DNA from: Candidatus Fervidifonticultor secundus
GTDB taxonomy: Bacteria > Sysuimicrobiota > Sysuimicrobiia > Sysuimicrobiales > Humicultoraceae
Reading direction: 5' to 3'
DNA: 48,169 nucleotides
Assembly: GCA_031459385.1 (NCBI GenBank)
Contig: JAVKIP010000021.1
Coordinates: forward strand, 1 to 48,169
The position numbers were made by a program. How positions within the stretch are numbered: position 1 is the first letter of the stretch; each line of letters opens with the position of its first letter. Positions 16,510-19,500 of this stretch are shown here, piece after piece.

Positions 16510-19500
16510 ATCTGGTGCGCGTGACCTCCGCCAGCAACCCCGAGGGCGTCTGGCACCTGGGCAACGGCCAGCGAAAGCCGATGGTGGGCCGGGTGCGGAT
16601 CACCGAGGGCATCCGCCCTGGCGTCGTGGCCTTCTCGCTGGGCCACGGCCACTGGGCCTACGGGGTGGCCGACGTCGTGATCGACGGCAAGACCGTCAAG
16701 GGGGACCCGCGCCGCGGTCGCGGCATCCACGCCAACGCCGCGATGCGCCTGGACCCGGTGGTGAAGAACACCTGCCTCTCCGACCGCGTGGGCGGCAGCG
16801 CGGTCTTCTACGACACGCGGGTGAAGCTGGTGAAGAGCGCGTGAGCAGCCTGCGCGGGCGCGGTGCCGCGGGAGGCCGCCGTCCGGGCGAGCAGCGTCGT
16901 CGCGCCCCGGACCGGCGCCGGAGGCTGCGCCAGGGGGCATGGCTGCTGGGCGGAGCGGCGCTCGCTGCGGCGGCCGTGGCGCTGGTGATGCTCTCCGCGC
17001 GGCCGCCGGCTAGCCAGGAGTCCCAGCCGGTCGCCCTGCCATCAGGCAGCGCGGCAGGGGCATCGCTCGAACTGGTCCTCTACCAGCCGCCCACCTGAGC
17101 GTGCTGCACCAGGTACGCCGAGTACCTGGCGGCGTCGGGGTTCCCGGCGCGGGTCATCAAGACCGACGATCTGGCAGACATCAAGCGCCGCCATCGTGTC
17201 CCCCACGACCTGGCGAGCTGTCACACCGCGGTGGCCGGCGGCTACTTCATCGAGGGCCACGTGCCCGTCGCGGCCATCGCACGGCTGCTGCGCGACCGGC
17301 CGGCGGTGGCGGGCATTGCGCTGCCCGGCATGCCGCCTGGTTCGCCGGGTATGGGCGGCGTCCAGACCGGACCGCTGGTGGTCTACGCGGCATCCGACAG
17401 CGGGATCAGCGAGTTCGTGCGCTTCTAGCGAATCGACGGGAGCCTGCGGTTCTGCGGCAGTGTGATCCTGCGCCCGCTCTCGACGAACACCTCGTCAGAA
17501 GGTCTCCGGCCGTCGGCGTCGGATTCATGCATGAACGCCGTGCTGCCAGGAGGTGCAGAGCCCATGGCTGTGTACCTGCCCGAAGTGTACACGCGGTTCC
17601 GGCAACTCCATCCCGACGTGGCTGCGGCGCTGGATCGGCTGGGAGCGGCTACGGAAGCCGCGGGGCCGCTTGACGCCCGGACACAGCGCCTGGTGAAGCT
17701 GGGTATCGCCATCGGCAGCCTGGCGGAGGGCGCCGTCAGGTCCAACGCGCGCAGGGCCCTGGAGGCGGGCGTCACGCCGGAGGAGATCCGGCACGTGGCG
17801 CTGCTCGCCATCACGACCCGCGGGTTTCCGGCCGCCGTCGCCGGCCTCGGCTGGATCGAGGAGGTACTGGCGGCAGGGTGAGGCGCGCCGGGGCCGATGA
17901 GACCCCGTGGGCGTGTCGGTCCGCCTCCCGTCTCCGCTCGTCCCTGTAACGGTGCTGGACCGGGTGAACCGGTTCGCGGTGCACGCACGGGCCGGCCGCC
18001 GACGCCTGGTGCTGCACCTCCCCAACCCGGGCCGCATGGCCGAGTTGCTCGTGCGAGGAGCGCACGGGCTGGCCGCGCTCACCCCGTCGCGCTCCCGCCG
18101 GACCGCCGGCACGTTGCTCGTGGTCCGTCATCGGGGCCGGTGGGTGGGTATGGACGCCCGCCTGCCTAACCGCCTCTTCGAGGAAGCGCTCCGGACGGGT
18201 GCGCTGGCGCCCTTTCGCGGCTACCGGCGCTGGCGGCGGGAGGCGCCGCTTGGCGGTTCCCGGATCGACTTCGTCCTGGAGGGCCCCAGCGGCCGCTGCC
18301 TTGTCGAAACCAAATCGTGCAACCGGGTGGACGGCGGCGTCGCCCTCTTCCCCGACGCGCCCACCACCCGGGGCGCCGCGCACCTGCGCCTGCTGGCCCG
18401 GGCCGCGCGCGCAGGCCGGCGGGCCGCGGTGGTCTGGTTCATCCAGCGCGACGACGCGCGGATCCTGCGGCCCTTCGCCGAACTGGACCCGCAGTTCGCC
18501 CGGGCTGCGCGGCAGGCCAAGCGGCGCGGGGTCGAGTTCTATGCCTACACGTGCCGGGTGACCCCCTGGGCGATCACGGTGGACCGGGCTATCCGGGTCG
18601 CCGTGTGTGAGGCACGTTTCCAAAAATCGGCTCGTCGCCCGATTGCGCAGGCCCCTGGAGGCGCCTACAAAGAGACGTAACAGCATTCGTCAAAATAGCC
18701 GGATTTCTCCGATTCGCGGCGCCCACGTCGCAGAACCCCGGCCCCCGTGGGAGGCTCGCCCCGGGAGGCTCGCCAGGGAGGCGGCCACGATGGAGGCAGA
18801 CGACGCGCGCGCCAGGCCGGTGCCGCCCGATCCCGACGCCACCGCCCCGGGGCCGTCTGGCCTGCGGCGCCGCCAGTTCCTCCAGCGCACCAGCGAACTC
18901 GCCAGCGGCGCGCTGCTGGCCCAGGCCCTGCCGCTGCAGCTGCTCCAGACGCTGTCCACCGTGCCGAATCCCTTGGAAGCCTACCCCGACCGGGGCTGGG
19001 AGCGTGTCTACCGCGACCAGTACCGCTACGATCACAGCTTCACGTTCGTCTGCTCGCCGAACGACACCCACCACTGCCGGCTGCGGGCGTTCGTGCGCAA
19101 CGGCGTCATCGTCCGCATCGAGCAGAACTACGACGTCGACCGCTACCGCGACCTCTACGGGAACCGCGCCACCCCCGCGTGGAACCCCCGGGGGTGCCTG
19201 AAGGGCTACACGTTCCACCGGCGCGTCTACGGGCCCTACCGCCTCAAGTACCCCATGGTCCGGCGGGGCTGGAAGCAGTGGGCCGACGACGGCTACCCCG
19301 AGCTGACCAACGAGCGACGCCGGCAGTACCGGTTCGACAGCCGGGGGCAGGACACGTTCGTCCGGGTCTCGTGGGACGAGGCGTACGCGTACATCGCCTC
19401 GGCCTTCATCGCCATCGCCCGCCGGTACAGCGGCGAAGACGGCGCCCGGCGCCTGCTGGCCCAGGGCTACCCGCCCGAGATGGTGGAGGCGATGCACGGC

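Follow-up and report, generated by a model that had tools for sequence, protein, structure and literature searches.

A 48,169-nt stretch of Candidatus Fervidifonticultor secundus DNA (contig JAVKIP010000021.1, forward strand; hereafter the window) encodes a DUF411/CopG-family protein that is very probably a selenoprotein, with selenocysteine (Sec) replacing the first cysteine of the CxCC motif. A Sec-containing DUF411/CopG protein had been proposed here in a first-pass annotation, and this core claim is strongly supported by the Sec/Cys pairing, the recurrence of the UGA codon, the Sec machinery, and the protein fold. The family is absent from the selenoprotein catalogue consulted. The gene and its relevant parts are the following.

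16841 to 17428, forward strand: probable Sec-containing DUF411/CopG-family coding sequence, 195 codons (195 aa), GTG start, TAG stop at 17426–17428.
16916 to 16993, forward strand: predicted membrane anchor or export signal: hydrophobic helix (residues 26–51) behind an Arg-rich N-terminus.
17096 to 17098, forward strand: UGA predicted to be read as Sec, residue 86, first position of CxCC and equivalent to the UxxC of the thioredoxin fold.

Frame translation bore out the 195-aa frame proposed earlier for 16841–17428, with a single in-frame TGA at 17096–17098 (residue 86) in the context ...YQPPT-U-ACCTRY.... The GTG at 16841, which we infer to be the start codon, overlaps by four nucleotides (GTGA) the TGA stop of the upstream molybdoenzyme gene at 16842–16844, and the relative G002 (in our genome numbering, where G000 is the genome of the window) has an ATG at the matching position. 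The 65-aa remnant that a gene caller was said to have kept is found as an ORF at 17231–17428 in the ORF list of the window, and it is what a gene caller would retain. Most likely the locus encodes one complete protein of 195 residues and not a truncated one. The helix at residues 26–51 is present in the AF2 model, the N-terminal segment is hydrophobic in the homologs as well, and in several Chloroflexota forms it is closely followed by a Cys. In the proposed topology, the Arg-rich N-terminus and the single membrane helix would be followed by a CopG/DUF411 thioredoxin-like domain that is probably located outside the cytoplasm.

Cys was invariant in the column of residue 86 (26 of 26 aligned homologs), and in an alignment spanning the TGA (query residues 79–172, E 2.8e-21) this residue matched the first Cys of C-G-C-C in CopG chain 6wis_A. 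The motif is present in the window as U-A-C-C; its third and fourth positions are Cys and its first is the UGA, so a CxCC-type motif is obtained only if UGA stands for Sec. As the first-pass annotation had reported for four relatives, TGA occupies the same codon in G001, G002, G060, and G039, while the other seven of the 11 relatives in which the gene is full-length (G013, G006, G048, G045, G066, G063, and G042) have Cys. In larger samples, TGA was found at this codon in 5 of 73 motif-bearing loci (80 loci from the genome_contigs set), in 2 of 72 motif-bearing metagenome loci (80 loci taken), and in 26 of 45 Chloroflexota loci (50 loci, 401 genomes of one class). A phylum-wide search covered 94 genomes, all of them already within the search of the relatives, and added nothing. 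A tree of 194 distinct domains required at least six changes between Cys and Sec, two of which were forced by well-supported branches.

If the TGA were a genuine stop, the locus would be a pseudogene or a split gene making at most the 65-aa ORF or an 85-aa N-terminal membrane peptide. The frame is indeed interrupted under the standard code, and the hairpin behind the codon (see below) is not exceptional in energy. Against this, at least 36 distinct sequences belonging to several lineages have TGA at this one codon, within a frame that is conserved before and after it and at a position that is an invariant Cys elsewhere. That five or six lineages should each have acquired a nonsense mutation at one codon independently is not credible, and the 65-aa fragment lacks the strands, helices, and CxCC needed by the CopG fold. 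We therefore regard a genuine stop as highly improbable.

The genome is equipped for Sec insertion. Matches were obtained for selB (367.6 bits, cut-off 242), selA (548.9 bits), and selD (388.2 bits), the latter two over their curated cut-offs and selD with a TGA of its own inside, and ARAGORN detected a tRNA-Sec with the anticodon tca. SelB scored over the cut-off in all five U-form genomes of the phylum, that of the window included, and in all five Chloroflexota U-form genomes tested, i.e., in 10 of the 10 checked overall. The presence of SelB is necessary but does not discriminate between the forms, because six of seven Cys-form genomes have it as well. In G001, G002, and G060, TGA is also the terminal stop of the DUF411 gene, indicating that the genetic code is standard and that the reading of the internal TGA depends on its context. 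These results bear on the possibility that the UGA is read through as something other than Sec, by near-cognate insertion of Cys or Trp or by a lineage-specific recoding. Such a reading could draw on the fact that no SECIS element was established for the Chloroflexota forms, but it is at odds with SelB in every U-form genome checked and with the terminal TGA in the three relatives, and the recoded position is exactly the redox or metal-binding Cys, the signature of Sec/Cys pairs. We judge it to be just as improbable as a genuine stop. By the preferred reading, UGA 17096–17098 would be decoded as Sec by SelB and tRNA-Sec. A genome-wide TGA screen of G000 returned 189 candidates, 23 of them with Cys nearby; its filter was crude and missed both selD and the DUF411 gene. 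The same genome also encodes a CooC-like protein with a UxC motif.

Two hairpins were predicted shortly downstream of the UGA.

17109 to 17129, forward strand: candidate bacterial SECIS hairpin CCAGGUAC-GCCGA-GUACCUGG, 8-bp stem and 5-nt loop, 10 nt after the UGA.
17130 to 17151, forward strand: second GC-rich hairpin GCGUCGGGG-UUC-CCCGGCGC, directly after the first, predicted in the MFE fold.

A conserved hairpin had been placed 12 nt after the UGA. The 8-bp hairpin is kept in the four nearest U forms (G000, G001, G002, and G060) and absent in the seven Cys forms, but the spacing is 10 nt, and in the U form of G039 the same hairpin was not found. The second hairpin also forms in G001, G002, and G060, where U-A stands in place of a U-G pair on one side, and it was not seen in the Cys forms. 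The 5' arm of the first hairpin uses the rare Arg codon AGG (3.1% of all Arg codons when 686 long ORFs of the genome are counted). By energy the hairpin is unexceptional for such GC-rich sequence, since the fold of the 60 nt after the UGA had a z of −1.61 and 13 of 200 shuffled sequences folded equally well; no covariation was seen in the stem within the clade of the window. In G000, similar GC-rich hairpins come after the UGA of three genes for recognised selenoproteins, namely PDO_seleno_TRX (226.6 bits, cut-off 185), a deiodinase-like protein, and a YciW-related (seleno)protein. The hairpin of selD was a poor comparator, having a longer spacer from the UGA (18 nt), and the formate dehydrogenase model TIGR01553 had no match in G000 at E ≤ 1e-20. 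An Rfam search of positions 16000–18500 at E ≤ 10 gave four chance-level matches and no SECIS family. Taken as a candidate element, the 8-bp hairpin, starting 10 nt 3' of the UGA, may help Sec decoding.

For the Chloroflexota U forms, RNAalifold yielded no consensus structure. A hand-drawn hairpin had 72.3% of its cells paired, marginally more than the 69.6% in shuffled alignments, of which 7 of 500 scored as high, and 60–62% in slid controls. Local hairpins were no stronger in the U forms than in the Cys forms (mean −11.4 vs. −14.0 kcal/mol). Given these three results, we make no claim of a SECIS element for the Chloroflexota U forms.

The Pfam DUF411 model (PF04214) matched residues 124–171 with 85.9 bits (cut-off 27) and an E-value of 1.5e-24, reproducing exactly the value given earlier; the match alone does not prove read-through, because it lies wholly downstream of the TGA. 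The AF2 model had a pLDDT of 97–98 over residues 78–195. The top five Foldseek matches were CopG chains, with TM-scores of 0.87–0.88 normalised to the target and an rmsd of 1.6–1.7 Å; the best, 6wje/6wis, had a TM-score of 0.88, an rmsd of 1.6 Å, and 38% identity. CopG was matched with an E-value of 5e-13, as against 2.5e-2 or weaker for glutaredoxins, and neither Pfam Thioredoxin nor Pfam Glutaredoxin matched the protein at E ≤ 0.01. In the homolog alignment, the other family invariants are kept as well: C127, H128, and T129 (CHT), H140 (GHVP), and M164 and M171 (PGMPxGSPGM).

CopG is described in section 6.5 of PMC7558416 as a thioredoxin-like domain with a Cu4 cluster held by CxCC and Met residues; in that account the CxCC supports a cysteine-bridged four-copper cluster, and interconversion of Cu(I) and Cu(II) or hand-over of copper is thought to occur anaerobically. 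Copper binding is transferred here from this one studied homolog at 38% identity, and on that analogy we give a copper-cluster function of the Sec form about an even chance. The Sec protein could instead be a selenol/thiol-disulfide oxidoreductase of the UxxC type that matures or protects the neighbouring extracytoplasmic molybdoenzyme and has no copper cluster. The fold is thioredoxin-like, and U-x-C-C, where helix 1 begins, reads as UxxC; section 7 of PMC13188914 states that the majority of Sec positions in known families are redox-active; and DUF411 closes a Psr/Phs-like molybdoenzyme operon in seven relatives (see below). The retained CHT, H140, and M164/M171 within PGMPxGSPGM point the other way, Met residues being cited as ligands of the CopG cluster (PMC7558416, in the part consulted), and the fold is far closer to CopG than to the glutaredoxins. 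On balance, an oxidoreductase without a copper cluster appears unlikely.

The gene stands downstream of two molybdoenzyme operons, with features assigned by Pfam and NCBIfam (Ttr/Srd-type) or annotated in the present analysis (Psr/Phs-like).

3890 to 11318, forward strand: Psr/Phs-like molybdoenzyme operon, conserved partner of DUF411 in relatives.
3890 to 6457, forward strand: Mo subunit of the Psr/Phs-like operon.
7222 to 8739, forward strand: NrfD of the Psr/Phs-like operon.
8960 to 9679, forward strand: TorD-like chaperone.
9453 to 11318, forward strand: polyferredoxin/FlpD.
11391 to 16844, forward strand: Ttr/Srd-type molybdoenzyme operon, directly upstream of DUF411.
11391 to 12356, forward strand: FeS subunit of the Ttr/Srd-type operon.
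12367 to 13596, forward strand: NrfD anchor of the Ttr/Srd-type operon.
About 13596 to 16844, forward strand: catalytic subunit of the Ttr/Srd-type operon.

The first-pass annotation had linked the protein to an SrdBCA-like selenate reductase, a tie that might involve, for example, the handling of selenium species from the reductase. In G000 the start of DUF411 and the stop of the Ttr/Srd-type catalytic subunit gene share the four nucleotides GTGA, which fits this idea, and the same adjacency is seen in G002. In the 13 loci compared (G000 and 12 relatives), these were the only two with the Ttr/Srd-type operon directly upstream of DUF411. In G001, which belongs to the same genus and for which an srdA-like gene had been claimed at this place, a polyferredoxin/FlpD gene precedes DUF411 instead. 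The best NCBIfam match of the catalytic subunit was TtrA, at 487.5 bits far below the cut-off of 1750, and TtrB likewise stayed below its cut-off; homologs bore the name of tetrathionate reductase or generic names, and none of the 120 listed was called SrdA. The proposed link did not hold up, and we consider a functional tie to a selenate reductase very unlikely. The recurrent arrangement is a different one: in seven relatives (G001, G060, G048, G045, G066, G063, and G042) the order Mo-FeS-NrfD-TorD-polyferredoxin-DUF411 is found, with DUF411 as the last gene of the Psr/Phs-like operon in U and Cys forms alike. In addition, nosZ tends to occur near DUF411. The DUF411 protein may handle copper for the anaerobic respiratory enzymes whose genes surround its own, and not take part in selenate reduction.

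Compared with CopG of Pseudomonas aeruginosa (DUF411, PF04214; 6WIS/6WJE), the protein keeps the CxCC, CHT, GHVP, and PGMPxGSPGM positions, and the folds superpose, but the first Cys of its CxCC is encoded by UGA. CopG carries a cleaved periplasmic signal peptide, whereas the protein of the window has a predicted membrane helix, and its gene lies in molybdoenzyme and nos respiratory clusters instead of beside copA, cus, or cueO. It also resembles the UxxC selenoproteins with a thioredoxin fold (PDO_seleno_TRX TIGR02187, selenoprotein thioredoxin/glutaredoxin, and DsbA-like proteins): the predicted Sec is N-terminal in a CxxC-type motif with which helix 1 begins, homologs have Cys in its place, and a candidate SECIS-like hairpin lies behind its codon. 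G000 itself encodes a TIGR02187 member, with the motif UPHC. The protein of the window differs from these selenoproteins in belonging to another family and in having an additional Cys within the motif (UxCC), and by analogy with CopG it would be expected to bind a metal cluster and not to perform dithiol exchange.

Table 1 of PMC13188914 lists metal-related selenoproteins, namely the SO_0444 Cu/Zn efflux transporter (UxC) and CopZ-family 2Fe-2S, MerT-like, YHS-domain, and E1-E2 ATPase forms, and in these, as predicted here, a Cys of an annotated metal-binding motif is replaced by Sec. None of those tabulated is a DUF411/PF04214 protein, and for none of them is there a homolog of solved structure whose recoded residue belongs to a multinuclear copper cluster. 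In [NiFeSe] hydrogenase and Sec formate dehydrogenase, the Sec selenolate ligates Ni or Mo/W directly (PMC13188914, section 7). The protein of the window would differ from both in that its metal would be copper, in a thiolate/selenolate-bridged cluster. To our knowledge, no natural Cu-Sec site has been described.

The family appears to be new to the selenoproteome. DUF411/CopG is absent from Table 1 of the 2026 catalogue of 119 prokaryotic selenoprotein families (PMC13188914), which includes the families of Haft & Tolstoy 2025 as tabulated there. NCBIfam has no model for a Sec-form DUF411 family, our full-text literature searches retrieved no paper tying DUF411 to selenocysteine, and no selenoprotein title was among the DUF411 papers listed. 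The Sec-form DUF411/CopG protein would therefore add a family to the prokaryotic selenoproteome. Gene callers cut the frame at the UGA, so mis-annotation is to be expected wherever the Sec form occurs (36 distinct sequences found).

Sec is usually located at the reactive position of a motif, and the Sec form therefore bears on which Cys of the CopG CxCC is chemically critical. In the mechanism we propose, Sec would occupy the position of the N-terminal nucleophile of a thioredoxin-type CxxC, with U-x-C-C corresponding to UxxC, and the selenolate might act as a softer, more nucleophilic, and more oxidation-tolerant copper ligand, redox centre, or both. With a recoded residue in the copper-cluster motif of a protein of solved structure, the family offers a direct test case for selenium at a copper site. 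As a bolder interpretation, to which we give somewhat less than an even chance, this could be the first natural protein in which Sec ligates copper: an exported, membrane-tethered CopG with a selenolate-bridged Cu4 cluster, widespread and, in the Chloroflexota class sampled, commoner than the Cys form, that tunes Cu(I)/Cu(II) redox or hands copper off for enzymes of anaerobic respiration, N2O reductase among them. If true, this protein and the CooC-like UxC protein of G000 would jointly suggest that some lineages introduce Sec into metal-binding Cys motifs systematically.

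The DUF411/CopG-family gene forms a single, conserved frame that carries one internal TGA, as the first-pass annotation had proposed and translation confirmed. The reading of its product as a selenoprotein is well supported and, in our judgment, very probably correct.

16841-17428, + strand: DUF411/CopG-family gene, a single frame of 195 residues
17096-17098, + strand: internal TGA (residue 86), the sole in-frame TGA of this frame
17109-17129, + strand: first hairpin, CCAGGUAC-GCCGA-GUACCUGG, starting 10 nt past the UGA
17130-17151, + strand: second GC-rich hairpin, directly after the first

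The frame starts with the GTG at 16841, which shares a GTGA overlap with the TGA stop of the gene upstream, and ends with TAG at 17426-17428 (+ strand). In the relative G002, an ATG stands at the matching place, which supports this start. Only the ORFs 16841-17098 and 17231-17428 (65 aa) are found here under the standard code, and the surroundings of residue 86 read LVLYQPPT-U-ACCTRYAEYL. As TGA terminates the DUF411 gene in the relatives G001, G002, and G060, the genetic code is standard.

For the window's own phylum, the codon of residue 86 was compared across 101 genomes, namely that of Candidatus Fervidifonticultor secundus (G000) and 100 relatives. The DUF411 protein was matched in 16 of them, a count that takes in a partial match of the unpublished G019 with no information on the residue-86 site; 12 were full length across the motif. 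The recurrence of TGA at this codon, claimed earlier for relatives, was seen in four of these (G001, G002, G060, and G039) in addition to G000, and Cys was present in seven others (G013, G006, G048, G045, G066, G063, and G042). The gene is apparently disrupted upstream in G037 and G051 and is partial in G072. Beyond this phylum, a TGA at the first position of the motif (UxCC) was also found in 5 of the 73 motif-bearing loci from genome_contigs (80 loci, 7 without the motif by pattern), these five being all from Chloroflexota, and in 2 of 72 from metagenomes (80 loci, 8 without). When 401 genomes from the class of one of these Chloroflexota were searched, 47 had a match, and the 50 loci of the class comprised 26 UxCC, 19 CxCC, and 5 without the motif. 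A FastTree tree built from 194 distinct domain sequences (36 U forms) requires at least six Cys/Sec changes, two of which are forced by well-supported branches, with many forks left unresolved because only 121 alignment columns were kept. In this tree, the window protein clusters with those of G001, G002, and G060 (support 96), and 28 Chloroflexota U forms make up a clade (support 81).

The genome holds the complete Sec machinery: selB (367.6 bits, cut-off 242), selA (548.9 bits), and tRNA-Sec (64.5 bits; anticodon tca by ARAGORN) lie near one another on contig C12, and selD, with its own in-frame TGA, on contig C1. SelB scored above the cut-off in all five own-phylum U-form genomes, G000 included, and in all five Chloroflexota U-form genomes tested, but also in six of the seven own-phylum Cys-form genomes, so it is necessary here without being discriminating. 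Insertion of Sec at residue 86 would be SelB-dependent.

The hairpin reported behind the UGA is present, at a spacing of 10 nt and not 12. Both hairpins also occur in G001, G002, and G060, whereas none of the seven Cys forms has them. Folding of 60 nt gave -31 to -40 kcal/mol for these hairpin-bearing U forms and -21 to -25.5 kcal/mol for the Cys forms; the U form of G039 is differently folded (-26 kcal/mol). The 5' arm of the first hairpin relies on an AGG codon for Arg; across 686 long G000 ORFs, AGG accounts for 3.1% of the codons used for Arg. In three genes of recognised selenoprotein families in this genome, a GC-rich hairpin follows shortly past each UGA. The 60-nt fold of the G000 gene has a z-score of -1.61, with 13 of 200 shuffles equally stable. 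No stem covariation was seen among the four hairpin sequences, as these are close kin, an Rfam search at the locus gave no match for the hairpin, and no SECIS could be established in the Chloroflexota U forms. We regard the hairpin as supporting the Sec reading without being decisive. In the closest Cys form (G013, locus L022), a possible 6-bp hairpin, CGCAGG-GUA-CCUGCG, was read by eye about 21 nt past the Cys codon; RNAfold did not pick it, and it may be a SECIS remnant or chance.

The reported Pfam DUF411 match (1.5e-24) was reproduced and is limited to residues 124-171, downstream of the TGA; NCBIfam gave no model above noise for the read-through protein. Residues 79-172 align with the Pseudomonas aeruginosa CopG structure 6wis_A (E 2.8e-21), with U86 at the first Cys of its C-G-C-C. 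In an alignment of 26 homologs, taken from 120 listed as the best of 518 matches at E <= 1e-5, positions 86, 88, 89, 127, 128, 129, 140, 164, and 171 are invariant; they correspond to C-x-C-C (with Cys86), a CHT motif, one His, and two Met. The AlphaFold2 model built from this alignment (pLDDT 97-98 over residues 78-195) predicts a CopG fold, its top PDB matches being five CopG chains (target-normalised TM 0.87-0.88, rmsd 1.6-1.7 A, identity 38%). A predicted helix spans residues 26-51, and the DUF411 domain would be exported on a membrane tether. According to a review (PMC7558416), CopG binds a tetranuclear copper cluster via CxCC and two Met and aids copper resistance under anaerobiosis; oxidation of Cu(I) or the handing on of copper is its proposed activity. 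As to function, the chief alternative would be a UxxC oxidoreductase free of copper that serves the neighbouring molybdoenzyme. In the model, U86 lies between a strand (78-82) and a helix (87-98), where a thioredoxin-type CxxC has its first Cys, so that U-A-C-C is also a UxxC motif; glutaredoxins and thioredoxins rank after the CopG chains among the PDB matches, at E >= 2.5e-2 only. Copper-selenolate chemistry is plausible for the Sec form: a selenolate might replace one bridging thiolate of a copper cluster, and/or form a Se-S redox couple with Cys89.

The Sec form of the known DUF411/CopG family is, as claimed, a new selenoprotein family within the literature covered (NCBI record flags and bioRxiv supplements lay outside it). 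Neither DUF411/CopG/PF04214 nor UxCC has an entry in the table of PMC13188914, which covers 119 prokaryotic selenoprotein families. Its closest entries in terms of motif, two "thioredoxin-like selenoprotein" subfamilies (CxU and UxC), belong to PF13192, for which the window protein gave no match at E <= 0.01. The family did not occur in the BSepDB paper and one supplement or in four deep-Sep paper supplements, and among the papers listed by full-text search nothing relevant joined DUF411, CopG, or PF04214 to selenocysteine or selenoproteins. Other Sec candidates of G000 are as follows.

C8:25730, C36:4787, and C9:69907 (- strand; loci L257-L259): three selenoprotein genes, namely PDO_seleno_TRX TIGR02187 (UPHC; 226.6 bits, cut-off 185), a deiodinase-like redoxin (UPYC), and a YciW-related (seleno)protein/CMD (CEYU)
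C23:19017-19817, - strand (locus L260:118-918), outside the window: CooC-like P-loop ATPase

The ATPase matches CooC (PDB 3kje, E 2.4e-37), and its in-frame TGA aligns with the first Cys of the CooC C-x-C (GAG-U-M-C). The TGA is kept in five of seven matches among 61 genomes (G000, G011, G013, G002, and G001); the remaining two, more distant, are without a stop. The protein is not listed in Table 1 of PMC13188914. Like the DUF411 protein, it may represent an uncatalogued selenoprotein whose Sec lies in a motif for metal binding.

The gene lies within an island of anaerobic respiration genes (3890-34391), in which we observed three distinct Mo-bisPGD enzymes, of Psr/Phs-like, Ttr/Srd, and type II DMSO-reductase type.

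3890-6457: Psr/Phs-like Mo enzyme; NrfD, TorD-like chaperone, and polyferredoxin/FlpD extend to 11318
9453-11318, + strand: polyferredoxin (621 aa), FlpD/MvhD domain, HdrA2-like similarity
11391-16844: Ttr/Srd-type FeS-NrfD-Mo operon, adjoining the DUF411 gene upstream
17462-17881, + strand: CMD/AhpD-like gene (PF02627, 7.9e-14), directly following the DUF411 gene
18607-26624: type II DMSO-reductase-family alpha/beta/delta/gamma set (gamma, EB_dh)
between this set and the nos genes: cupredoxin and radical SAM genes
29817-34391: nosZ, nosL, nosD

Selenoproteins are known in the CMD/AhpD-like family; the CMD/AhpD-like gene following DUF411 has no internal TGA, and no counterpart was found in the loci of 12 relatives (tblastn, E <= 1e-8, minimum query coverage 30%). 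MvhD and HdrA are selenoprotein families in the 2026 catalogue (PMC13188914); the polyferredoxin, with homologs in loci L116-L122, has no internal TGA.

The same 12 relatives were compared over wide flanks. The proposed link to a selenate reductase is not supported: the Ttr/Srd-type operon lies directly upstream of the DUF411 gene in G000 and G002 only, its A subunit has TtrA as best NCBIfam model, far under the cut-off, and none of 120 listed homologs is named SrdA. In G001, where a srdA-like gene was said to precede DUF411, the preceding gene is instead the polyferredoxin/FlpD gene of the Psr/Phs-like operon. This operon, with that gene immediately before DUF411, has the same placement in U and Cys forms (G001, G060, G048, G045, G066, G063, and G042). 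In G039, a TtrA-like gene lies at a distance of 5.5 kb, and neither operon is present in the flanks of G006, G037, and G051. NosZ was found in 12 of the 16 genomes with DUF411 versus 16 of the 85 without, which we take as a lead without statistical weight, as the genomes are kin; nosZ lies about 5 kb from DUF411 in G048 and G060, with regulator genes between. A NosZ match at G060:C6:10225-12176 is broken into two segments separated by a single TGA, which may reflect a frameshift, an assembly error, or another cause. The operon position of the DUF411 gene is conserved; its product may handle copper for anaerobic respiratory complexes.
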